This document shows positions 19,563 to 56,178 of a stretch of 64,000 nt of DNA, one piece after another. Source of the stretch: an uncultured Leptospiraceae bacterium (GTDB lineage Bacteria > Spirochaetota > UBA4802 > JAGODF01); contig CAZVKE010000005.1 in NCBI GenBank assembly GCA_964627815.1, positions 270,083 to 334,082 on the forward strand, written 5' to 3'. Under the pieces are notes generated by a model. That model was not told the origin of the DNA and made no database searches. It was given only the letters and a program-made list of their open reading frames with translations. Within the stretch, counting starts at the first letter, position 1. Each line of letters opens with the position of its first letter. Made by a program: the position numbers and the translations under genes.

Positions 19563-21128
19563 TCAGGCACGCCTGACCAGCCGCTTCACGATCCTTTCAT
19601 ACATAAACCTTATCTCCCGGACCCCGAGAAGCATGCAGGCTGCAAAATAGGTGGCGCTGCCGGCTATCACGAGCACCATGAGGTAGATCAGCCTCTTGCT
19701 GAACGGATCGGCGAACCAGTTGACGCGCGACGAGATCAGATAGAGCACCAGCCACATCACAAGGCCCGCGGCAAGAAATTTGAGCGGCGTAACGATGATC
19801 TCCTTCGCGCCTATCCTTCCTATTTTGCGGTGCAGCAGGTAGAGGAGGATGAACACCTGCAGCGTAACCGCTATTGAGTTGGCAAGCGAAAGTCCGCCGT
19901 GCAGAAGGGGCGTTTTCATAAGGATATATCCCGCCCCGATGTTGACCACGAACGCGATCGCTGAAGTAATAACTGGAGTCCTGGTGTCCTTGAGCGAATA
20001 GAAGGTCGGCGTGGTGATACGGAGGACGGCGATCGCCGATATCCCCATGCTCGAATAAAAGAGCGCCTTCTCGGTCATGAGGGCATGATGCGCCGTGAAC
20101 TGCCCCCGCATGAAGAGCACCGAAAGGATCGGGATGCCGATGGTCATGAGGGCGATACTCGCCGGCACCGCGAGGAAGAGCGCGGCGTTAACGGCAGTTC
20201 GGTATATCTCACGCAGCCTGTCGATATCGTCCCTGGCGGTTACACGCGACATCTCGGGCAGGATAACATTGCCGATCGAAACGATGAATACGCCAAGAAC
20301 GATCTCGGTAAGCCTGTCGGAATAGAAAAGGTACGAAATGCTTCCGGACGGCAGGACCGAAGCGAGCATCGTGCTCATCAGGATATTGATCTGGTAAATA
20401 GCTATCCCGAAGGTCGCCGGCGCCAGAAGACTGAATATCTTGCGTATGCCGGGGTGCTTGAAATCGATCGATATCTTCATCCGAAAGCCGGATTTTATCA
20501 GCGTCGGGATCTGCGTGATGACCTGCAGCAGGCCTCCGAAGAGCGCGCCCAGGGCCAGCCCGTAGAGCGGCTCGCTGAAGAAAGCGCTGAAGCCGAATGC
20601 GCCGACGATGAATCCGACGTTGAGGAGCACGGGGGAGAACGCCGGGGTGAAGAAGTATCCGTGCGAATTGAGCACTCCCATCGCGAAAGCGACAATACCT
20701 ATCAGGAAAAGATAGGGGAACATTATCTGGTTGAGTCTCACGGTCAGGTCGATCTTGGATGGATCGTCAAAACCGACCGCGAAGACGCCCACAATCTCCC
20801 TTGAAAACACAACCCCGAGCACCACAAGGATAAAAAGCGTCACCAGTAAGATCGATAAGGTCTTCTGCGCAAGTTTAAGCGCCTCTTCCCGGTCGTGTTT
20901 GACGAGGTATTCGGTGTAGACGGGGATAAAGGATATGGTGAGCGCCCCTTCGCCGACAAGCCGCCGGAAAAGGTTCGGTATCCGGTAGGCAACGAAAAAA
21001 CCGTCGAGCGAGCCCGAAGCGCCGAAGTAGTTGGCAATGATCATGTCGCGGATAAAACCCGTGATACGGCTCAGGAGCGTCGAGAGCGCGACAACGCCGG
21101 TCGAACGCACGAGGGATTGCTTTTTCAT
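19563..21128 (-). CDS. murJ: Lipid II flippase MurJ (MviN)
   Basis: N-terminus ...VVALSTLLSRITGFIRDMIIANYFGAS...FFVAYRIPNLFRRL is the canonical MurJ signature. 14 TM helices, 521 aa. Confidence 0.85.
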   Translation of the reverse strand: MKKQSLVRSTGVVALSTLLSRITGFIRDMIIANYFGASGSLDGFFVAYRIPNLFRRLVGEGALTISFIPVYTEYLVKHDREEALKLAQKTLSILLVTLFILVVLGVVFSREIVGVFAVGFDDPSKIDLTVRLNQIMFPYLFLIGIVAFAMGVLNSHGYFFTPAFSPVLLNVGFIVGAFGFSAFFSEPLYGLALGALFGGLLQVITQIPTLIKSGFRMKISIDFKHPGIRKIFSLLAPATFGIAIYQINILMSTMLASVLPSGSISYLFYSDRLTEIVLGVFIVSIGNVILPEMSRVTARDDIDRLREIYRTAVNAALFLAVPASIALMTIGIPILSVLFMRGQFTAHHALMTEKALFYSSMGISAIAVLRITTPTFYSLKDTRTPVITSAIAFVVNIGAGYILMKTPLLHGGLSLANSIAVTLQVFILLYLLHRKIGRIGAKEIIVTPLKFLAAGLVMWLVLYLISSRVNWFADPFSKRLIYLMVLVIAGSATYFAACMLLGVREIRFMYERIVKRLVRRA

Positions 21129-21132
21129 TGCG

Positions 21133-22695
21133 TCAGCTCCATCGAAGGAGCGCTGCCCCGGCGGACACCTCCACCTTCAGGCAGCCGATATCAATAAGCC
21201 TTGAGACTTCGTACGAAATGTCGTCGGCTGGATGGTCCATTCTGTCGCGCAGATATGAGGCGAAGTTGCCTCGCACCGATCCCGGATCGGTACTGCCGTC
21301 GCCCGGATACTTCTCCACGAGCTCTTTCTGGATCAGATCCGCGGTGAAGACAAACGATTTGAGGCTCTGGTACATCACTCGATCGCCTTCGGGCACCGCT
21401 TCACCGCTGGCAAGCTTATCGGCGATTGAGAGCATCTTTTCACGCGTTCGCTCATTGAATTCCGCGGCGATCGTGTCCACCATTTCAGCGGTGATGTCAC
21501 GCGTCACCGAAACGGCCCTGTTGGCGTCATAGAGGTCCCAGTCGCTGGTAAGGATAGTGATGCCGTACTCGTCAGCCTTCTCTCGCACTTCTGTGCCGGG
21601 CATCGGCGCCAGTATATGGTAGCCGTAATAGGGGCTCAGGCGCTTCGAGAACTCGAGCGTGTTTTTAATCGTCTGCGGCGTCTCGCCCGGAAGGCCGAGG
21701 ATATAGGATGTCATCGGCGTTATTCCGGCGGCCTGGCACATCGCTATCGCGCTTTCGCACTTTGCGAGCGTAATCTTCTTTTTTACTGTATCGAGTATTT
21801 CCTGGTTCGCGCTTTCGATGCCGAAACAGAGCGTGGTGCATCCGGCTTTTTTCATCGAATCGAGGAGCTCGGGAGAGACTGTATCAACCCGCGCGAACGC
21901 CGTCCAAGGATGCTTTATGCCGCGGCGGATGATCTCATCGCAGACCGCCATGCAGCGCGTCTTATTCGAGGTAAAGAGGTCATCGACGATATTGATCTGC
22001 TTGAACCCCATCTTCGAAAGCATCTCGAACTCATCGACAACCCGGCTAACATCGAAGTAGCGGACCTTGCGCCCGACCATCTTGCTCCCGAGGCAGAAGA
22101 TGCATTTATGAGGGCAGCCGCGCGAGGTAACCATGTTGATCGGGAAGCCAAGCGCACGGTATTTGCTGAGCTTAACCAGATGGCGCGCGGGATACGGAAG
22201 AATATTTATGTCCTCGATGAACGGCCGCTGTTCATTGTGGACCGCGGCGCCGTTTTTCCTGAATGACAGTCCTGCAATGCCTTCCACGTCCTGCCGCGAC
22301 GCGATCGCATCAAGAAGTTCGACGAATGTTAGTTCTCCCTCGCCGCGCACAATGTAGTCAATGAACGGATTGTCGCGGAGGATGTTATCGGCATCGAAAG
22401 TGACATGGGGCCCTCCCATGACGAACACCGCTTCGGGCTTCAGTTCCCTGTACTTCGAGAGGATCGCAAGTCCCTTCTTTATATTCATGGTAACCCCGGT
22501 CGCCCCGATGACGTCAGGATTGAAATCACTGATGGTGGCCTTCATGTTTTCTTCGGTGCATGGTGTTATGATGAAGTCATCGATCCGCACTTCAAATCCT
22601 TTTTCGATGAGAAACGCCGCAAGCGACATGAGCCCGAAGGGAGGGGTCGGCGATTCTTCAAACGGGTAGGGGGGATTTATCAATAGTACTTTCAT
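21133..22695 (-). CDS. B12-binding-domain radical SAM enzyme (class B-like)
   Basis: N-terminal cobalamin-binding Rossmann-like domain. Radical SAM CxxxCxxC motif CPHKCIFC. 4 nt upstream of murJ on the same strand. Confidence 0.75.
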   Translation of the reverse strand: MKVLLINPPYPFEESPTPPFGLMSLAAFLIEKGFEVRIDDFIITPCTEENMKATISDFNPDVIGATGVTMNIKKGLAILSKYRELKPEAVFVMGGPHVTFDADNILRDNPFIDYIVRGEGELTFVELLDAIASRQDVEGIAGLSFRKNGAAVHNEQRPFIEDINILPYPARHLVKLSKYRALGFPINMVTSRGCPHKCIFCLGSKMVGRKVRYFDVSRVVDEFEMLSKMGFKQINIVDDLFTSNKTRCMAVCDEIIRRGIKHPWTAFARVDTVSPELLDSMKKAGCTTLCFGIESANQEILDTVKKKITLAKCESAIAMCQAAGITPMTSYILGLPGETPQTIKNTLEFSKRLSPYYGYHILAPMPGTEVREKADEYGITILTSDWDLYDANRAVSVTRDITAEMVDTIAAEFNERTREKMLSIADKLASGEAVPEGDRVMYQSLKSFVFTADLIQKELVEKYPGDGSTDPGSVRGNFASYLRDRMDHPADDISYEVSRLIDIGCLKVEVSAGAALLRWS

Positions 22696-23007: not shown

Positions 23008-23036
23008 GACGTAAGATATTTGACAAAGCCGACCGC
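23008..23036 (+). promoter_or_regulatory. Sigma70-like promoter (TTGACA-17-ATATAA) upstream of the 972-aa gene
   Basis: TTGACA at 23008..23013, a 17-nt spacer, ATATAA at 23031..23036. The leader would be very short. Confidence 0.35.
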
Positions 23037-23056
23037 TGTGTAATATAAAGCAGACT

Positions 23057-25975
23057 ATGCGTAAAGGATATGTCATCATTATAATGATCGCGGCGTGCCT
23101 GTTTTTGAGGGCGCTGCACGCGGCTACCCTGTTCGACCCCCGGCTGCGCTGGCAATCCCTGAAGACCGAACACTTCTGGATCCATTACCACCAGGGACTT
23201 GAGGATATCGCCCGCCGCATGGCGGTTATATCCGAAAGGACACACGCGAGGCTCACCGGTGAAACCGGCTGGCAGCCTTTCCTGAGGACCGATCTGATAC
23301 TGGTGGACAATATGGACCTTGCCAACGGATTCGCGACACCGTTCCCCTACAACAGGGTCCAGATTTTCATCAACAGGGCCGATTTCGACAGTGTGCTGGG
23401 CAACTTCGATGACTGGCTCGAGCTTGTTTTCACGCATGAATACGTCCACATCCTCAACCTCGATATGATCAACGGTATTCCGGCCGTTACGCGCTATACC
23501 TGCGGAAGGGTCTGCTTTCCCAATATGTTTCTTCCCATCTGGGCGCTCGAAGGAAACGCGGTGTACGCCGAATCCCGCAACCACATCTACGGACGGAACA
23601 ACAGCACCTACGTCGACATGATGATGCGCATGGACGTCGCGCGCGATTCGCTTAAAGGGATCGCGGAAGCATCCCACTACCCGAGAAGCTGGCCAATGGG
23701 CAACGTACCGTATATCTACGGAGGCCGTTTCATTGAATATCTTGAGCAGAGATACGGACGCGACCGGTTTCGCGACACAATGATCGAAAATTCAGATAAC
23801 ATACTCCCGTATCTGGTCAACCGGAACGCCTGGATGGTATACGGCGTTTCGTTCAATTACCTCTGGAACGAATGGCAGAATTTCGAAACGGCTAAATTCC
23901 GCGGGCATCTGCGGCAGATACAAAAAGAAGGCGTTACTCCAGCACAAAGGATCACGAAAAGCGGTTACTTCACGACGCTGCCGCGATTCGCCAAAGACGG
24001 AAAAAGCCTCTACTATGTTCGAATCACCGGATACTCCAGACCGGTCCTGGCTCGCTCTTCTCTCGACGGGAATGACCAATCTGAGCTCTCGCTCGTTAAT
24101 GAGCCGAACAGCCTTGCCGTAACGGGCAGGGGAGATCTCTATCTTTCTGATATCGAGTATTACCGTTCCTTTTCGCTTTACAACGAAGCGTTCCGTTACG
24201 ATTCGGGAATGCGCCGTCTTACCGGCAGACTGCGGGGCCGGCATATCGATGTCACCGCCGACGGATCGCGCTCCGTCTGTGTGCACAACGACCGTGATCG
24301 ATATTCCCTCCTGGTCGGCGACACCGGATTTCAGGAGTTCAGTACACTTATCGAAAAATCACCGGTACAGATCGCCTTCCCGAAAATTTCTCCCGACGGG
24401 AAGCGGATCGCCTTTTCCTTCCGGGAAGGGAAGGGCAGTTCCAATCTTGCGCTCATCGAAGTCAATTCGAAGAAAATCGAAAGGCTGACGACCGGAGCGT
24501 TCAACGATATCCACCCGACCTGGCATCCCGACGGCACGAGACTCGTTTTTTCATCCGACAGGAACGGCGTGTATAATCTCTACGAACTGAACCTGTCCGC
24601 GAAAAAACTTGCCCGTATAACAAATATTGAGGGAGGGGCGTTCTCGCCCGACATTTCTCCCGATGGCAGCCGTATCGCGTTTGCAGATTACGACGCGGGC
24701 GGGTTTAATATCGCGCTCATCAATTATCCGTCGGAACCGAGGGACCGTGCGCAGATCGCTCCCGCGGTGATGGATCCTGGCTTTTTTGCCGATACCACGG
24801 CTTTACTCCCGGAGCGGGCCGATATCCCCCCGTCCCCGTACAGGATCTGGCGCTCGATCCTTCCTCCGCTCTGGATACCGATGCTCGGCTCTGAAGAAAT
24901 CTACGACAACAAGTATGACACCTACCTGGGCCTTTACACGATGGGATCGGACACACTCTTCTTCAACCAGTACAGCCTCATGTGTTTCGCCTATAACGAA
25001 CAGAAACGGGCCGTGGTCGATTTTACCTACGCCCTGTCACGGTTTTATCCGGATTTCATTGTGCACTATCGCGACGAAACGCTTTTTTACGGTGAAGATG
25101 GATTCCCCTGGGCTGACTCCAACATGACGGCAACTCGAAGGACCCTTGAAAAACAAGGCAGTTTCGGAGTATCTGTTCCGGTCAATTATTATCAATCTTC
25201 ACATCTGTTTTACCTATCCTATATCTACGAAAAAGATCGCACCTCCGTGTATATACCGGGTTATGAGGTCACCGAATATACTGACATTCTTGCCCGCTTG
25301 CGTTTCGTCTATTATTATACAAACGCTCAGATGTATCCGTTTTCAATCAGCGCAGAAGACGGGAGAACGATGTATATTATCTCGGATTACTACAGCGTCA
25401 ACCTGGGGTCCGATCTCTCTTACCGAAAGGTCCGGGGCGAGTACGCCGAGTACCTGCCGGGATTCGCAAGCAACAACGTCATCATGCTCCGTCTTCGCGG
25501 CGGGGGAGCGTTCAACGCTCCGGATTATATCGCCCCTTTCAACCTCGGTCGGTTCGAGAAAGGCAAGCGCGGATCCGTCGCAACAGATGAGGATGAGTTC
25601 GGAATGCGGGGATACCCCTCGGGTCTGATCTACGGCACCCGCCTCGCGGTCGCCACTATAGAATACCGGTTTCCACTCTTCCAGGTTGACTGGGGATACA
25701 GGACAGTACCACTCATGTTCCGCGATCTCTGGCTCCAGGTCTTCGCCGAATACGGCAACGTGTGGAACGGGGAAGCCGATTATGGCGCGTTCCGGTCCAG
25801 CGCCGGCGCGGAACTCCACGCGAACATCACACTCGGCTACTATGTGGCGCTTGAAGGATATATCGGCTTTTCCCGCGGATTCAACGAATCAGGAGAAAAT
25901 CAGGTCTATTTCGGCATAGGAACATTTTACGAGGGCGCTCTTAAAAACAGAAATAAATGGTTTGATTTTTTATAA
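23057..25975 (+). CDS. Large outer-membrane protein with three parts: signal peptide + HExxH metallopeptidase-like domain; TolB-type (PD40) beta-propeller; C-terminal Omp85/D15-family beta-barrel
   Basis: Signal peptide MIAACLFLRALHAATLF. FTHEYVHILN (HExxH) with a downstream ALEGNAVYAE. PD40 repeats PDGKRIAFSF, HPDGTRLVFSSDRNG, SPDGSRIAFADYD. C-terminal RGYPSG...ATIEYRFPLFQ...LQVFAEYGNVW resembles the Omp85 barrel signature. Confidence 0.6.
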   Translation: MRKGYVIIIMIAACLFLRALHAATLFDPRLRWQSLKTEHFWIHYHQGLEDIARRMAVISERTHARLTGETGWQPFLRTDLILVDNMDLANGFATPFPYNRVQIFINRADFDSVLGNFDDWLELVFTHEYVHILNLDMINGIPAVTRYTCGRVCFPNMFLPIWALEGNAVYAESRNHIYGRNNSTYVDMMMRMDVARDSLKGIAEASHYPRSWPMGNVPYIYGGRFIEYLEQRYGRDRFRDTMIENSDNILPYLVNRNAWMVYGVSFNYLWNEWQNFETAKFRGHLRQIQKEGVTPAQRITKSGYFTTLPRFAKDGKSLYYVRITGYSRPVLARSSLDGNDQSELSLVNEPNSLAVTGRGDLYLSDIEYYRSFSLYNEAFRYDSGMRRLTGRLRGRHIDVTADGSRSVCVHNDRDRYSLLVGDTGFQEFSTLIEKSPVQIAFPKISPDGKRIAFSFREGKGSSNLALIEVNSKKIERLTTGAFNDIHPTWHPDGTRLVFSSDRNGVYNLYELNLSAKKLARITNIEGGAFSPDISPDGSRIAFADYDAGGFNIALINYPSEPRDRAQIAPAVMDPGFFADTTALLPERADIPPSPYRIWRSILPPLWIPMLGSEEIYDNKYDTYLGLYTMGSDTLFFNQYSLMCFAYNEQKRAVVDFTYALSRFYPDFIVHYRDETLFYGEDGFPWADSNMTATRRTLEKQGSFGVSVPVNYYQSSHLFYLSYIYEKDRTSVYIPGYEVTEYTDILARLRFVYYYTNAQMYPFSISAEDGRTMYIISDYYSVNLGSDLSYRKVRGEYAEYLPGFASNNVIMLRLRGGGAFNAPDYIAPFNLGRFEKGKRGSVATDEDEFGMRGYPSGLIYGTRLAVATIEYRFPLFQVDWGYRTVPLMFRDLWLQVFAEYGNVWNGEADYGAFRSSAGAELHANITLGYYVALEGYIGFSRGFNESGENQVYFGIGTFYEGALKNRNKWFDFL

Positions 25976-25989
25976 CTTGGTCGGATACT

Positions 25990-27585
25990 ATGGGTTCCGG
26001 CCGGGGAGGCAACAGTCAGCCAGCAAGAGAACCTGCCGCCGGTCAGTGTATTCTGGATCGAGAGAAAAGGGGTATCGCCTTGGATGAAAGAAAGGAAGAT
26101 TTCATCATCAAACCCGCCAATTACAAGGAAGCGGTCAAAGAATCGAAAGAGCTTTACATACAGTTTTACTTCCTCACGCCGGAAGTAGAATCAAACCTCA
26201 TGAGAATACTGCATCGTTTTCTTGAGCGATATGATCTGCTCTACATGAAAGACGTGCTGTATACGGTATTAAAAGAGCTTGTCAACAACGCGATCAAAGC
26301 CAACCTGAAACGGGTCTATTTCAGCAAACGGGGCATGGATATTGATGACAAGACCAGCTATCGCAACGGGATGGAAACTTTCAAAGACGAAACGTACGGT
26401 GTTGAGAATAACGAGTTCGAAGAATTAAAGACAAACAAAAAGATCGTCAGAGTCTCATTCATCGCGCACTCGGACAAAATGATTATCCATGTCATCAACA
26501 ACTCGCCGATCCTTGATGAAGAGCTGACAAAGGTGGACGCACGGTCTAAAAAAGCTTACAAATACGATGACATTTCAGAAGCGTTCAACGACGTCCTCGA
26601 CGACTCAGAGGGCGCGGGGCTCGGCCTGATAATGGCCATGATGCTCTTCAAAAGCATAGGGCTTCCCCGTGAGACCTTCAGAATCGCCAAAAAAAATGAT
26701 CTCACCATTGCGGCTATAAATGTACCGCAGATGATCGATCGGACAGTCATTCATTCAATGATCGCCGATGAAATCATGAAGGAAGTCGAAAGCATCCCGG
26801 CTTTTCCGGCAAGCATACGCGAAATTCAGCGCATACTCGCCAATCCCGATTCAACAATCAAAGAGATCGCCGACTCCATCAAGCGTGACCCGTCTCTCAC
26901 CGCTAACCTGATGAAGATAGCAAACTCGGCAGGATACCTGACGATCAACCGTGTCGAGACCATTGAGGACGCCATAAAAAAGATCGGGATCAAGGGGATA
27001 AACTCGCTCGTCATAGCAAGCGGCGTGCAGGACATCATAGAGGCGAGGTATAAAAAATTCGAATCCCTCTGGAAGAACTCCTATAAAACAGCGTTTTACG
27101 CCCAGAAGCTTGCCATGACCTTTAAAATACATAATATCGTTGAATTCGTGTATCTGTCCGCGCTTCTCACCGACATAGGCAGCATGGTGCTTCTTGCGGT
27201 GAAACCGGAAAACGCCGAGAAAGTCAAAGAACTGGTCGGCTACAAAGGAATTAATGACGCAAACCTGCTCGAGGAAATCGGGCTGGGGATGAGCCACAGT
27301 ACGCTCGGGAGTGCCATTCTGAAAAAATGGAATTTCAATGAAGCACTGGTGAAAAGCGTAGAGTTCCATCACCGCCCCCATATGGCCCCCGAAAAATACC
27401 GGGAGTTGATATACTGCGTGTATCTGGCGTCATCCTTCATCGATATCGAAGACAGAAAGAACAGATACGAATTTCTCGATGAGGACGTGCTGGACTATTT
27501 CAAAATCAGCAACCGCGAGAACTATGAGAAACTGCACAACGCTATCAAGGATGCGTATCAACAGCAGGTTAATTCAGTAGCGTAA
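25990..27585 (+). CDS. Signalling protein: GHKL-type ATPase-like domain fused to an HDOD domain. The exact start is uncertain.
   Basis: LKELVNNAIKAN...DSEGAGLGLIMAMMLFK is HATPase_c-like. The C-terminal HDOD-like region is IPAFPASIREIQRIL...HSTLGSAILKKWNFNEALVKSVEFHH. Confidence 0.6.
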   Translation: MGSGRGGNSQPAREPAAGQCILDREKRGIALDERKEDFIIKPANYKEAVKESKELYIQFYFLTPEVESNLMRILHRFLERYDLLYMKDVLYTVLKELVNNAIKANLKRVYFSKRGMDIDDKTSYRNGMETFKDETYGVENNEFEELKTNKKIVRVSFIAHSDKMIIHVINNSPILDEELTKVDARSKKAYKYDDISEAFNDVLDDSEGAGLGLIMAMMLFKSIGLPRETFRIAKKNDLTIAAINVPQMIDRTVIHSMIADEIMKEVESIPAFPASIREIQRILANPDSTIKEIADSIKRDPSLTANLMKIANSAGYLTINRVETIEDAIKKIGIKGINSLVIASGVQDIIEARYKKFESLWKNSYKTAFYAQKLAMTFKIHNIVEFVYLSALLTDIGSMVLLAVKPENAEKVKELVGYKGINDANLLEEIGLGMSHSTLGSAILKKWNFNEALVKSVEFHHRPHMAPEKYRELIYCVYLASSFIDIEDRKNRYEFLDEDVLDYFKISNRENYEKLHNAIKDAYQQQVNSVA

Positions 27586-51706: not shown

Positions 51707-52117
51707 ATGCGATTTATTCAATATCGATCGATTGACAATAACGTCTATCACTTCGATTTTTCGGGTTTTGAGGTCGACGAATCGCTCCTGCCGACAGGAC
51801 GACACGCGCGAGACGCTCTTTCCCCTGACGACCGGATCAGGTTCGCCGACGAGCTGCGGGGCGCGGCCGATCGCTGGCAACGCGGGGCGGCTCCTCAACC
51901 GGAACCGGAGACGAACGGGAGGAGGATCATATACGACGCGCTCGCGCCTGGGGAGCCTCTTTTCATCGGACAGGTAGTCGAGAGGACGGGATTGCCTTAC
52001 AATAGGGTAAAATTTTCATTGTTTGATATGCATAGAGCTGGAAAAATAGAAAAAGTTGGTCGCGGGAAGTACAGAAAGTTGGTGCCGCAGGATGGGCAAC
52101 TTTCAGACCAACTTTGA
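51707..52117 (+). CDS. Hypothetical protein with a C-terminal winged-helix-like segment
   Basis: ...LFIGQVVERTGLPYNRVKFSLFDMHRAGKIEKVGRGKYRKL. Followed by a terminator hairpin at about 52190..52225. Confidence 0.45.
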   Translation: MRFIQYRSIDNNVYHFDFSGFEVDESLLPTGRHARDALSPDDRIRFADELRGAADRWQRGAAPQPEPETNGRRIIYDALAPGEPLFIGQVVERTGLPYNRVKFSLFDMHRAGKIEKVGRGKYRKLVPQDGQLSDQL

Positions 52118-52474
52118 CGGCCTTTTTATAGGCGCTGAAGGTTCATTCTCCATGGAAAAATAGACTTTTGCCGGCGTGGAGGCGTCGGTTCGCTCGCCCT
52201 GGGTAAAACCGGGGCTTTTTTATCAAGTAAAGTTAACACTTTATGTAAACCGGTTTTTCAAAACCTCATAGAAATCGTCGCGCGGGCGCTTGCACCTGAT
52301 GTCGAGAGGGGCTCCGGTCAGGACCCGTTGACTATTAAAAATAATGAAATGGATTATTATTTTTCTTGCCCCCTGGCGGGGGTGGGGGGAGGGTATACCC
52401 GTATACAGGTGAGGAGCAAGAGGGTGCCGTCCTCTTTGATGATTGATGCATGATGATTTCAATAATAGGTTGGT

Positions 52475-52684
52475 GTGCGTGCCATGAGGCGCAGAACTTT
52501 ATTTATAATAACAATAGCGTTATTCCTGTCCTGCTCGGATAGGACACCGAAATTCTGTCATAAGGAATTCAAATTATGTATAGATCGTGGTAATGAAGCC
52601 AGCGCATGCTTTTCGAGGGTGAATGCGTGCCTTAAGTTTGTTGAAAGATATCGCCCTACATCGGAGCAGGGCGAAGGGAGGTAA
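52475..52684 (+). CDS. Small Cys-rich putative lipoprotein
   Basis: MRAMRRRTLFIITIALFLSCSD has a lipobox-like LSC. There are six Cys in 69 aa. AT-rich. Confidence 0.35.
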   Translation: MRAMRRRTLFIITIALFLSCSDRTPKFCHKEFKLCIDRGNEASACFSRVNACLKFVERYRPTSEQGEGR

Positions 52685-52686
52685 AA

Positions 52687-53589
52687 CTATATTGACTTTA
52701 AAGTGTTATAAAAATCATCTTCATTGATTATTGGAATATAAATACCATCGTTTCTCAATCTCATCACTTTCTCAATTTTCCTTCCATACGTAGAATAGAT
52801 CCAACATGGATTAGAAAGCGCTCCGACAACAAGATAATTTAATCCCTTAATAACACTATTGGCAACGAAACCACCCTTCAAAACCAAAAGAGATTGAATA
52901 TCTTTTCTTGTTCCATATTTCATTTGTCCAGTTAAGCAAAAATGTTTTCGGTGAATAATTATATCTATATCTTTATCAACAATTCTATCAATCGTTTTCA
53001 ATACTGGCGCATTGGTATTCATCCAGTAGTCAACAAACATAGATGAATCTTTTGCTTGGTTATCTGATTTTTCTTCTGCAAAACATTTTGCAAATGAAAT
53101 AAAATCTTCCTTCTCTTTTTCTGTAATCTTGCCATCTTTTAAAATATTTCTAACTAAGTCATAACACTCGCTATATGGCCACAATCCTATATTGGAATTG
53201 TGATATGTTAACCATTTTTTAAGAGCCTCTAACTCCAACGTGTTTATTTCCCTATCGCACACTATCCCATGAAGAAACCCATGCAGATTCCTCATCTCTT
53301 TTGTCATTTGATCGATAGGGCCCTCCAGGGCCTGAAATTGATCACAGAAGTCAATTATCTCTTCTTTTTCATACTGGTCAATAATTCCATCTTCTAAAAT
53401 TCCATCGATGAAAGTATATGCTTCAGAAAAGGGATATATGTGACTAAAATTCTTATGGTTATCAAGCCATGTTTTTAATGATTCTATCTCTTTAATATTT
53501 ATTTCTCTATCGGCGGCTATACCCTTCAGTAATCCCTCTAATGTGTGAATGGCTCTTGATGCTTCAGTAATTTTCCCGGTAATAGCCAT
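52687..53589 (-). CDS. Protein with an N-terminal tandem ~85-aa helical repeat and a C-terminal BRCT domain
   Basis: The repeats are REINIKEIESLKTWLDNHKNF..YPFSEAYTFIDGILEDGIIDQYEKEEIIDF and REINTLELEALKKWLTYHNSN..WPYSECYDLVRNILKDGKITEKEKEDFISF. The C-terminal FCLTG...RKDIQSLLVLKGGFVANSV.KGLNYLVVG...GRKIEKV is a ligase-type BRCT. RBS GGGAGG. Distinctly AT-rich. Confidence 0.6.
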   Translation of the reverse strand: MAITGKITEASRAIHTLEGLLKGIAADREINIKEIESLKTWLDNHKNFSHIYPFSEAYTFIDGILEDGIIDQYEKEEIIDFCDQFQALEGPIDQMTKEMRNLHGFLHGIVCDREINTLELEALKKWLTYHNSNIGLWPYSECYDLVRNILKDGKITEKEKEDFISFAKCFAEEKSDNQAKDSSMFVDYWMNTNAPVLKTIDRIVDKDIDIIIHRKHFCLTGQMKYGTRKDIQSLLVLKGGFVANSVIKGLNYLVVGALSNPCWIYSTYGRKIEKVMRLRNDGIYIPIINEDDFYNTLKSI

Positions 53590-53673
53590 GTCAATCCTCC
53601 CTTTAAATGATATTCAAAACATATGCATATTCATAATAAGGTCAATCATAAAATGATAAGACGTGGAATGAAT

Positions 53674-54345
53674 CTAAAGAACATCTATGCCGAAGGGGAA
53701 GTCTGGTTCATCATCATCGTTGTAGATGTCATAACTGGATAATGAACCAAATTTATTACCCTCACGTCTATGAAATCCGATATACTTTCCGCCGTCCTTG
53801 TGATTCGCCTTAATGAATTTATAAGTAACGATCGTGGATGTGTGGTCTTCCATATTTGCACATTTATGTGAATTATTCTTGAGGGGGTTTTTCTCTTCAT
53901 CATCACAAACCGAAAACCTAAAACCGGATCTACAATATTTATTAAATATGTATGTTGGCTGTGATAGAATTATCTCTTGATACTTGGGGCGCTTATGAAA
54001 AACAATAAGTGAATTCCGCGGGATTACATTATCTTCAATTATTGTATCTTGTGCGAGTCTGCCGCGAACTATTTCTCCCGTTCTATAAAATTCTACTTCA
54101 TGTTCATGGCTCAATTTGAAACCATTGTAATATTCATCATTCTTCAGGAAGGCTATCTTTGTTTCACCGGCCTTGAAAACAAATCTTGTATTATGATTTT
54201 TGCCAAAGTGGTTAAGTGCGTAATTCAAATCCTCAATCTTTTCTATTATTTTCTTTTGACCGAGTGTTTTATGTGGGAAGAGTCTGACAATTCTCGATAA
54301 TTCAAAATACTTCTCATCATTCATTTTGTGAATTACCGAGAACAT
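53674..54345 (-). CDS. Hypothetical 223-aa protein (no recognisable family), co-operonic with the BRCT protein
   Basis: AT-rich ORF. Contains a Cys/His cluster, CRSGFRFSVCDDEEKNPLKNNSHKC. Its start is 18 nt after the RHH stop. Confidence 0.5.
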   Translation of the reverse strand: MFSVIHKMNDEKYFELSRIVRLFPHKTLGQKKIIEKIEDLNYALNHFGKNHNTRFVFKAGETKIAFLKNDEYYNGFKLSHEHEVEFYRTGEIVRGRLAQDTIIEDNVIPRNSLIVFHKRPKYQEIILSQPTYIFNKYCRSGFRFSVCDDEEKNPLKNNSHKCANMEDHTSTIVTYKFIKANHKDGGKYIGFHRREGNKFGSLSSYDIYNDDDEPDFPFGIDVL

Positions 54346-54363
54346 TAAAGACGCACCATGTGG

Positions 54364-54534
54364 GCTAATTTTTAGATTTTGGCAATATTCGTTTTTCTAT
54401 GGCGTGTTTAATCGCATTCCCTACAAAATCTTGAATACTTATCCCATTCTCTGCGCAAAAAACCTTTAAAGCTCGCATTTCTTCGGAGGGAAGTCTGAGG
54501 GTTGTTTTTGATAATCCTTCGTTCATTTTATTCA
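54364..54534 (-). CDS. Ribbon-helix-helix (CopG/ParD-like) DNA-binding protein, 56 aa
   Basis: Not in the ORF track (under 60 aa). Hand translation: MNKMNEGLSKTTLRLPSEEMRALKVFCAENGISIQDFVGNAIKHAIEKRILPKSKN, with a TLRLPSE beta-strand followed by two helices. The upstream intergenic region carries the inverted repeat ctgtcaag...cttgacac.ttgacag. Confidence 0.55.
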
Positions 54535-54642
54535 TGATTTAATATACACATGGTATTTTTTTCTGTCAAGACAAAAATATCTCTTGACACTTTGACAGCA
54601 AGGTGTCATTGTTCTTATATATTAACAATTGGAGGTTTTAAA

Positions 54643-54795
54643 ATGAATATACTGCTCGAAACACTTAACGAACGCGAACGCGAATTGGATGAGAGGGAAG
54701 CTCGCATAATAAATAATCACCGGAACATTGTTTGCATGCTCAAAGTGGTTAAAGAGCTGCTGGACGAAGCCATTTACGGCAAGAAAGTGGCGTGA
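54643..54795 (+). CDS. Small coiled-coil protein (50 aa), divergent from the RHH operon
   Basis: GGAGGT RBS. MNILLETLNERERELDEREARIINNHRNIVCMLKVVKELLDEAIYGKKVA. Confidence 0.35.
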   Translation: MNILLETLNERERELDEREARIINNHRNIVCMLKVVKELLDEAIYGKKVA

Positions 54796-54860
54796 GTTTA
54801 TCGGTATATGGGTACATATAACCCCGCAAAAACTGCGGGGATTTTTTTATCATATCTCAC

Positions 54861-54880
54861 CGGTAGCACCCGGTAGCAAA
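54861..54880 (+). promoter_or_regulatory. Tandem CGGTAGCA(C/A) motifs (attR-side arm-type sites)
   Basis: cggtagcac-c-cggtagcaaaaa. A third copy at 54977..54985 abuts the attR core. Confidence 0.4.
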
Positions 54881-54984
54881 AATAGACATTTTTTGCGGGT
54901 CGTATGGTCTTTTTCTTGACAGAATGGGGCGTAAAAGTACATAAAAGTATATCGAATCGCTTAACGGGCGTTTATTCGGTAGCA

Positions 54985-55029
54985 CTTCTAAGCCGTGGGT
55001 CAGAGGTTCGAATCCTCTCGGGCGTGCAT
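54985..55029 (+). repeat. attR core: duplicated 3' half of tRNA-Arg(TCT)
   Basis: Identical 45-mer to 43915..43959. No 5' tRNA half is present here. Confidence 0.85.
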
Positions 55030-55435
55030 TTCCTTCCCTGTTTCCAGCAATACCGATTTCCCGGCACATATATCAACACATATCCAATCTTCCGATTCTG
55101 AAACAGCCGTGCCGGTCAGGCATGATCGATTATTATAATATGCATACTTATATATAAAAATTATCAGCGTAACACTTTTATTGTATTGACGCTGATTTCA
55201 CCCAAACCTATTGTTTTGCACGAATCGTGAATTCGTTATCCGGAAACTGCGATGAAAAGGAAAGAACTCATACTGATACCTTATGAGTTCTCACAGAGCG
55301 CAGGGCACGCTTCGCAGTTGATTTTTAATGTGAAAGGCGGAACTCATGAAGTATGACTAATATCCTTCCATCGCATTCCCCCAAAGCACATTTGCGTCAA
55401 CTGCATACAATTAAGGATTGTATCGGGAGGACATC

Positions 55436-55633
55436 ATGACAAAAATACCGCTTGGGGAACTGCTTGTAGAAGATGGTATACTTACCCCGGATCAGCTTCA
55501 AACGGCCATGGACATTCAGAAAAAAGAAGGCGGCCTTATTGGAGTTATCCTCATCAACCTCGGTCATATCGACGAGAAGACACTTATTAAATATCTGGCC
55601 CTTCAAACAGAAAGCGTGATCAACTCAAAATAA
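55436..55633 (+). CDS. Stand-alone MshEN-type (GspE N-terminal-like) domain protein; putative c-di-GMP receptor
   Basis: MTKIPLGELLVEDGILTPDQLQTAMDIQ-KKEGG-LIGVILINLGHIDEKTLIKYLALQ. This gives two 24-residue (R/P)LGxxLVxxGhhxxxxLxxxLxxQ motifs separated by 5 residues. RBS GGGAGGA. Confidence 0.55.
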   Translation: MTKIPLGELLVEDGILTPDQLQTAMDIQKKEGGLIGVILINLGHIDEKTLIKYLALQTESVINSK

Positions 55634-55686
55634 TCTGTCGTCCCTGACGATTATCTTTCCTGATCGCCGCTTATTACGCTTCCGCG

Positions 55687-56178
55687 TCAGCGCTCAGCAG
55701 GCGTCCGGGAATCGTTCTGTTTGATCATTTGTTCAAGCTCGCCGACCAGAGACTCATAATAGGCGTTTGAGAAGAAACGATAGATATCAATCCTGTCATT
55801 TTCAAATGTCCGGAGTATCTGCCTGTACTGGCTCGCGCCCTCGGTATGGTCGGCGCATATACCGTGCCGTTTTCCGTATCCGCACAGGAGGCAGCTCGGG
55901 TTGTTTGTGGCCCTGCCGCACCCTTCATGTTTGTATTCGTATTTATGGCAGAAGGGGCAGAACTCGTAGCGGAGGCCTGAGCATTTATGATGAAACACAT
56001 TGTATTTTATCTTGCCCCAGACATCCTGTGCCTCCTTCTCCTCCCAGCTCATTATATCATCGCGGTCGCCATCGTTGAAATACCACTCGGAGGGAATGGT
56101 AAGTTCCTCCTGCATCCAGGCGGCTTTTTTTTCCATAAACTGAACAAGGGCGCTGTTGTAGGCTTTCATGGCGGTCAC
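55687..56178 (-). CDS. Cys/His-rich hypothetical protein (putative metal-binding)
   Basis: HHKCSGLRYEFCPFCHKYEYKHEGCGRATNNPSCLLCGYGKRHGICADH. Confidence 0.45.
   Translation of the reverse strand: MTAMKAYNSALVQFMEKKAAWMQEELTIPSEWYFNDGDRDDIMSWEEKEAQDVWGKIKYNVFHHKCSGLRYEFCPFCHKYEYKHEGCGRATNNPSCLLCGYGKRHGICADHTEGASQYRQILRTFENDRIDIYRFFSNAYYESLVGELEQMIKQNDSRTPAER

Follow-up and report, generated by a model that had tools for sequence, protein, structure and literature searches.

The locus and its product

The window considered here is a stretch of 64,000 nucleotides from an uncultured Leptospiraceae bacterium (contig CAZVKE010000005.1, positions 270,083 to 334,082), in which an open reading frame (ORF) of the forward strand, with exact boundaries at 23057..25975, encodes a protein of 972 amino acids (aa) that joins a zinc metallopeptidase domain, a TolB-type beta-propeller and a C-terminal beta-barrel of the Omp85 superfamily. 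A first-pass annotation, made from the sequence alone, had recognised these three modules and had read them as an undescribed, type V-like architecture for a surface-exposed or self-exported protease. The fusion is real, and the identities of the modules stand, but neither the novelty of the architecture nor the export was upheld.

The architecture is, in fact, on record since 2014, when the Omp85/TpsB superfamily was split into ten subfamilies, including one termed 'WD40-like' (PF07676 repeats plus PF01103) by Heinz & Lithgow (PMC4104836). The protein from the window belongs to this subfamily, which it matches in architecture, Pfam domains and templates: PF07676 lies N-terminal to PF01103, as in the Pfam combinations of Table S2 of that paper, the propeller is TolB-like, and the N-terminal region matches templates of the aminopeptidase/collagenase type (1z1w, 4kx7, 4fgm and 4ar8), Table S3 listing TolB together with templates of this same type (1z5h, 4kxd, 4fgm, 4ar1) for the WD40-like proteins. 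The main text of the 2014 study treats only the propeller, as a 'BamA-BamB fusion', and never the peptidase. The architecture in the window is thus not new, and the protein is one more example of a family already catalogued; what is added to the catalogue is a complete set of gluzincin active-site residues that is invariant across the family, the count of six propeller blades, the systematic absence of POTRA domains, a topological argument for a periplasmic point of attachment, and an estimate of the size of the family.

All conservation counts refer to a set of 82 homologs with 25-56% identity, the closest of which (46-56%) all come from Spirochaetota/Leptospirales metagenome-assembled genomes. 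The alignment of these 82 sequences was the input for an AlphaFold2 model, which is very confident (mean pLDDT 91.7, pTM 0.91), and the pTM value indicates that the packing of the domains against one another is also confidently predicted. The features of the gene are as follows:

23057..23125 (+), Sec signal peptide, aa 1-23, with predicted signal peptidase I (SPase I) cleavage after LHA; hydrophobic N-terminus, pLDDT<50
23126..23950 (+), gluzincin metallopeptidase domain (clan MA(E)-type), aa 24-298, with an N-terminal beta-sheet subdomain and a helical subdomain
23435..23449 (+), HEYVH zinc-binding and catalytic motif (H127, E128, H131), in 82/82 homologs, on helix 120-136 of the model
23549..23572 (+), helix E165-G-N-A-V-Y-A-E172, with the predicted third zinc ligand E165 and a second invariant Glu
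23711..23713 (+), Y219, candidate transition-state-stabilising Tyr, invariant in 82/82 homologs
23951..24754 (+), TolB/PD40-type beta-propeller of six blades, aa 299-566
24755..24868 (+), linker between propeller and barrel, aa 567-604, without POTRA; 38 aa with minimal secondary structure in the model
24869..25924 (+), Omp85-superfamily beta-barrel, aa 605-956, with 16 long strands in the model
25604..25615 (+), M-R-G-Y, aa 850-853, the Omp85 loop-6 VRGY/F motif, within the 42-aa loop between beta11 and beta12
25742..25756 (+), F-A-E-Y-G, aa 896-900, the Omp85 beta13 motif of the (F/G)xDxG type
25925..25975 (+), C-terminal extension of 16 aa past beta16 (aa 957-972, YEGALKNRNKWFDFL) and stop codon; pLDDT<50

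The signal peptide that the annotation had noted is a classical SPase I signal peptide in the family as a whole: AxA-type signal peptides were found in all of the homologs, and they end just ahead of a conserved FDP which opens the mature protein. A lipoprotein reading of 'IAAC' (aa 11-14) was rejected, given that no lipobox is conserved and that the SPase I sites of the homologs lie directly before this FDP.

The peptidase domain

The peptidase domain is the most conserved region of the whole protein, and HEYVH (aa 127-131), E165, G166, E172, R180 and Y219 are invariant throughout the homolog set. In the AlphaFold2 model, an alpha/beta domain spanning aa ~28-290 has a thermolysin-like catalytic fold, with both the HExxH helix and the Glu-bearing helix, so that the HEYVHIL segment and its downstream Glu residues, previously described as gluzincin-like, do lie within a peptidase domain. 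No Pfam or NCBIfam model matched this domain above threshold, and the sub-threshold Pfam matches are all zincin families (Peptidase_MA_2, M48, BSP and M61). It is a genuine gluzincin catalytic domain and, as no family hidden Markov model (HMM) reached its threshold, it constitutes a distinct, unnamed gluzincin family of its own.

When compared as a profile, the domain gave a weak alignment (E 0.034) with the M1 aminopeptidase 3cia, in which W162..E165-G166 falls on the M1 motif 'WLNEGF', which carries the third ligand, and P218-Y219 falls on 'VPYVKG'. E165 is thus the predicted third zinc ligand, and the Tyr aligned to Y219 has a catalytic role in M1/LTA4H. The family is, however, no member of M1: Peptidase_M1 gave no above-threshold match in Pfam, H131 and E165 are separated by 33 residues, rather than the 18 of the M1 motif HExxH-x18-E, and the GxMEN exopeptidase motif is absent from the 972-aa sequence, in which the conserved upstream strand reads D-x-A-N-G-F-A-T-P. 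The structural neighbours of the domain include M30 lugdulysin and the M9 collagenases, and from these motifs and neighbours we infer the specificity of an endopeptidase or an oligopeptidase, rather than that of an aminopeptidase.

A chance HExxH or a pseudo-enzyme was rejected as the source of the motif, on account of both the invariance and the fold. A catalytically dead scaffold, in which a zincin-like pseudo-peptidase would serve for binding only and the whole protein would be a structural component of the envelope, tethering it in the manner of TolB/Pal, would agree with the lack of a peptidase model at threshold and with a spacing between H131 and E165 that departs from that of M1, although, set against the invariant residues, this reading is highly improbable.

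The propeller

The annotation had counted at least three PD40/TolB repeats. The Pfam scan returned four PD40 (PF07676) matches (E 6e-27), and the model places 24 strands in aa 304-566, which form six four-stranded blades. The best sequence matches of the propeller are TolB models and TolB structures, with tricorn (1k32) and S9 peptidases also among the matches. This is not TolB itself, however: the TolB equivalog TIGR02800 reached 106 bits against a cutoff of 343, with only profile positions 230-356 matched, and the N-terminal alpha/beta domain that TolB has in the Tol-Pal system is missing here, where the propeller is instead fused to other domains. Two further models, PF26549 and PF26550, which are probably of tricorn-type propellers, are found in the precomputed annotation of homologs, and not in the local Pfam scan of this protein.

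The linker and the barrel

The Omp85 barrel proposed for the C-terminus is confirmed by the 16 strands of the model, by PF01103 and by two superfamily motifs. The PF01103 match was missed by the full-length Pfam scan and emerged when the C-terminal 412 aa were scanned alone (30.6 bits, cutoff 24), which is probably the reason for the inconsistent names of the public homologs (hypothetical protein, PD40 domain-containing, Tol biopolymer transport component, DPP IV N-terminal domain-containing, BamA/TamA family). The loop-6 (L6) motif is [L/M]-R851-G852-[Y/F]853, with R851 in 80 of the 82 homologs and both G852 and Y/F853 in 81, while the beta13 motif is F-x-[D/E]-x-G, with F896 in 65/82, D/E898 in 81/82 and G900 in 74/82. 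With these loop-6 VRGY/F and beta13 motifs, the protein is a member of the Omp85/TpsB superfamily. No POTRA domain was found in the model, nor is there room for one in 80 of the 82 homologs, but as the barrel is the sole feature by which Heinz & Lithgow delimit the superfamily, this absence does not exclude membership.

A cryptic POTRA domain, which the annotation had left to be checked, was rejected: in 80 of the 82 homologs, 40-59 aa separate beta1 from the last long strand of the propeller, the linker of 38 aa in the present protein is too short for a POTRA of ~75 aa, and the model has no beta-alpha-alpha-beta-beta unit. The protein accordingly has neither the five POTRA domains of BamA nor the three of TamA and, given that the BamA equivalog TIGR03303 scored 20.7 bits against a cutoff of 297, its barrel is not a BamA orthologue.

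These results bear on the possibility that the protein is an assembly or translocation factor, with the barrel inserting other proteins as BamA/TamA do, or translocating them as TpsB does, the propeller replacing the POTRA domains or BamB, and the peptidase processing or clearing the clients. The propeller as a docking platform is the 'BamA-BamB fusion' idea of Heinz & Lithgow (PMC4104836). On the other hand, POTRA domains are present in all of the characterised Omp85 insertases and translocases (PMC11116518), the BamA score falls far below its cutoff, the barrel has very short extracellular loops, purifying selection acts most strongly on the peptidase domain and on its catalytic residues, and no conserved neighbouring gene encodes a substrate comparable to the TpsA partner. 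On balance, an assembly factor is an improbable reading, with a small chance of being right.

Two connections of the barrel have lengths that are unusually fixed. T4, the periplasmic turn between beta8 and beta9 (aa 756-767, nucleotides ~25322-25357), has 12 aa, which is long for a turn, and 12-14 aa across the 82 homologs, while L5 (aa 780-788) has exactly 9 aa in all of them. Lengths as constant as these point to structural contacts, in which the linker or the propeller may be the partner.

The end of the barrel differs between lineages. In the Spirochaetota homologs (P0004-P0060), the ~15-aa tail past beta16 is conserved as EGA[FL]KN..KW[LF]D[YF]L, whereas the homologs from other phyla stop at beta16 with a terminal F/L, which resembles the classical beta-signal of outer-membrane proteins. 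An extension past the beta-signal is unusual among such proteins.

Topology and the question of export

The side of the membrane on which the N-terminal domains lie can be approached through the lengths of the connections between strands. Those on the L6 side vary (L3, L4, L6, L7 and L8; sd 1.9-5.1), whereas the turns on the side of the termini, T1-T7, are nearly constant (sd 0-0.9). As variable extracellular loops and constant periplasmic turns are the standard pattern in outer-membrane proteins, beta1 and, with it, the linker would start at the periplasmic face, as in BamA. By this pattern of loop lengths, the N-terminal domains are attached to the periplasmic face of the barrel, and we infer that the passenger itself is periplasmic.

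The surface-exposed or self-exported protease of the annotation would, by contrast, have its peptidase and propeller translocated by the barrel alone or by a hybrid with BAM, in a type V-like manner, and would degrade extracellular proteins for nutrition or defence. An N-terminal passenger followed by a C-terminal barrel does mimic the classical autotransporter order, a linker of 40-59 aa could span the lumen, the M30 lugdulysin and M9 collagenases that neighbour the peptidase structurally are extracellular enzymes, and many of the hosts, such as Myxococcota and Acidobacteriota, are environmental degraders. However, TolB-type propellers are periplasmic modules, beta1 begins at the periplasmic face, the conserved L6 fills the Omp85 lumen, and export would require some 540 residues, a closed six-bladed propeller among them, to pass through in an unfolded state with no source of energy. 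In addition, the passenger is the most conserved region, unlike typical surface-exposed domains.

Nor does type Vd secretion offer a model. The protein has neither the single POTRA nor the patatin domain (PF01734 gave no match in the Pfam scan), and is thus not type Vd by definition, while the N-terminal patatin domain of the type Vd prototype, PlpD, was itself shown to remain periplasmic by Hanson et al. 2024 (PMC11116518), which removes the precedent for self-export. Export of this kind is, therefore, decidedly unlikely.

Distribution and genomic neighbourhood

The family is large, and its phyletic distribution, which the annotation had proposed to survey, covers at least 548 genomes in a scan of species representatives. 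These include Spirochaetota, Nitrospirota, Gallionella, Geomonas (cultured), Thermoanaerobaculia, Vicinamibacteria, several Gammaproteobacteria and Myxococcota; the family spans at least six phyla in the present analysis. A word-index search gave 1,427 matches, and of the 120 that were listed, ~117 extend over the full length, while an exhaustive HMM search with the peptidase domain only returned 3,120 clusters (50% identity) at E ≤ 1e-30 and 6,937 at E ≤ 1e-10. In all of the best 150 matches of the latter search, the domain begins at residue ~20-45, and 113 of these proteins have 900 aa or more; this uniform N-terminal start, together with these lengths, indicates that the peptidase domain is essentially tied to the three-module architecture.

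Downstream of the gene, on the same strand, an HDOD gene (25990-27585, 531 aa) begins 15 bp past the stop codon, with lon next. Its product combines an HDOD domain (E 2e-50) with a weak HATPase-like region at the N-terminus. No terminator was found between the two genes, and they may be co-transcribed, although a cytoplasmic signalling protein beside the gene of an outer-membrane protein is an odd pairing. The HDOD gene lies directly downstream in ten Spirochaetota loci and not in the other phyla, and it was rejected as a conserved operon partner, as it is restricted to Spirochaetota and the neighbours that do recur across phyla are promiscuous receiver domains and alpha/beta-hydrolases. The lack of a cross-phylum partner gene is consistent with a self-contained enzyme.

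Upstream, in divergent orientation (19563-22695, -), lie a B12-binding radical SAM gene and murJ. This arrangement is shared by four Spirochaetota loci and looks like synteny at the level of the clade only.

A scan for promoters and terminators gave nothing exceeding the shuffled background. Immediately upstream of the ATG at 23057, there is a TTGACA-15 nt-TAATAT sequence (23020-23046), with a spacer one base below the scan range of 16-18, and the leader that follows it would be of ~10 nt, with no obvious Shine-Dalgarno sequence. Elsewhere in the window, the GC content falls to 0.38-0.41 at ~52000-56000, versus 0.50-0.60 across most of its length, and this segment may have been horizontally acquired.

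A proposed role for the protein

Taken together, the protein is probably a periplasmic zinc endopeptidase anchored in the outer membrane, with the six-bladed propeller governing access to its active site. The ~540 N-terminal residues would remain in the periplasm, tethered by the linker of ~40 aa to the periplasmic end of beta1, and would make up an active gluzincin, with HExxH and Glu165 at the zinc site and Tyr219 as the likely transition-state stabiliser. The peptidase would be packed against the TolB-type propeller, which, to judge from the analogous tricorn, prolyl oligopeptidase and DPP-IV, may bind substrates or act as a gate, limiting access to unfolded chains or peptides. The barrel would be, at the least, the membrane anchor, and the role of the whole would lie in the processing or quality control of envelope proteins, rather than in a secretion system.

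Several points weigh against this proposal. A search of the literature found no experimental data on any member of the family. The side of the membrane assigned to the passenger follows from loop lengths and the precedent of PlpD, and not from the geometry of the AlphaFold2 model, and a linker of 40-50 aa could, in principle, thread the lumen of the barrel, as in the classical autotransporters. The endopeptidase specificity was deduced solely from an absent motif and from structural neighbours. Finally, the L6 and beta13 motifs of Omp85 are strictly conserved, which a role as an anchor does not explain.

This last conservation suggests that the barrel may be more than an anchor. One bolder possibility is that the protein is a single-polypeptide counterpart of BAM-BepA, in which the beta1/beta16 seam, together with L6 and beta13, would capture stalled or misassembled outer-membrane proteins that bear a beta-signal, and would pass them to the propeller-gated protease beneath. 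Such a counterpart is a long shot, although, if it were true, a fused analogue of BAM and BepA would be a machine dedicated to the removal of outer-membrane proteins, and the first Omp85 protein with a degradative function, rather than one in assembly or translocation.

Comparison with known systems

The WD40-like Omp85 proteins catalogued by Heinz & Lithgow are the closest known system. Their architecture is identical, no POTRA is listed for them, and their taxonomic range overlaps that of the family described here (Myxococcota, Gallionellaceae and others). The members listed in 2014 include D5CSQ4, A9FGN9 and D0MEQ5 (PMC4104836), and full-length relatives were found here in Gallionella and Sorangium genomes. 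The Spirochaetota clade differs from them in the added tail of ~15 aa after beta16.

The subfamily has been called uncharacterised in two papers from 2024, one of them PMC11116518, in which the Bernstein laboratory names Omp85 subfamilies of this kind as intriguing targets. Its existence is no surprise to the specialist, but its function is a tractable question. The characterised Omp85 proteins all assemble or translocate proteins, using POTRA domains, whereas the WD40-like subfamily, with its thousands of sequence clusters and very wide distribution in environmental diderm bacteria, swaps these domains for a TolB-like propeller and an apparently active zinc protease. Learning its substrates and the part played by the barrel would widen the range of functions ascribed to the Omp85 scaffold, as happened with PlpD.

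A second subfamily of the same catalogue invites confusion through its name. The 'Omp85-metalloprotease (Metallo)' proteins carry PF00149, and their templates, purple acid phosphatase (d1xzwa2) and GAP50 (3tgh), belong to the metallophosphoesterases rather than to the proteases (PMC4104836). The Metallo subfamily was rejected as a match on these grounds, its fold being that of a phosphoesterase without HExxH, although the label 'metalloprotease' persists in later papers. The WD40-like subfamily appears to be the only one in Omp85 with a real HExxH peptidase.

PlpD likewise combines an N-terminal hydrolase and an Omp85 barrel on one polypeptide, and its enzyme is periplasmic and packed under the barrel. 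It differs, however, in having a patatin lipase and one POTRA in place of a zinc peptidase and a propeller with no POTRA, and dimerisation has been shown for PlpD itself.

On the peptidase side, M1, M30 (hyicolysin and lugdulysin) and the M9 collagenases are the points of reference, from which the present protein departs in being without the M1 domains I, III and IV. Tricorn, prolyl oligopeptidase/DPP-IV and the S9 peptidases also join a propeller of the PD40 type to a peptidase domain, but tricorn and S9 are soluble serine peptidases, whereas the peptidase here is a zinc gluzincin, N-terminal to its propeller and anchored in the membrane. Lastly, the M48 zinc protease BepA, which docks on BamA in the quality control of outer-membrane proteins, also brings an HExxH zinc protease to an Omp85 barrel, and BepA-BAM is a plausible functional analogue, in that it, too, pairs a protease with a protein-interaction module on the inner side of the outer membrane.

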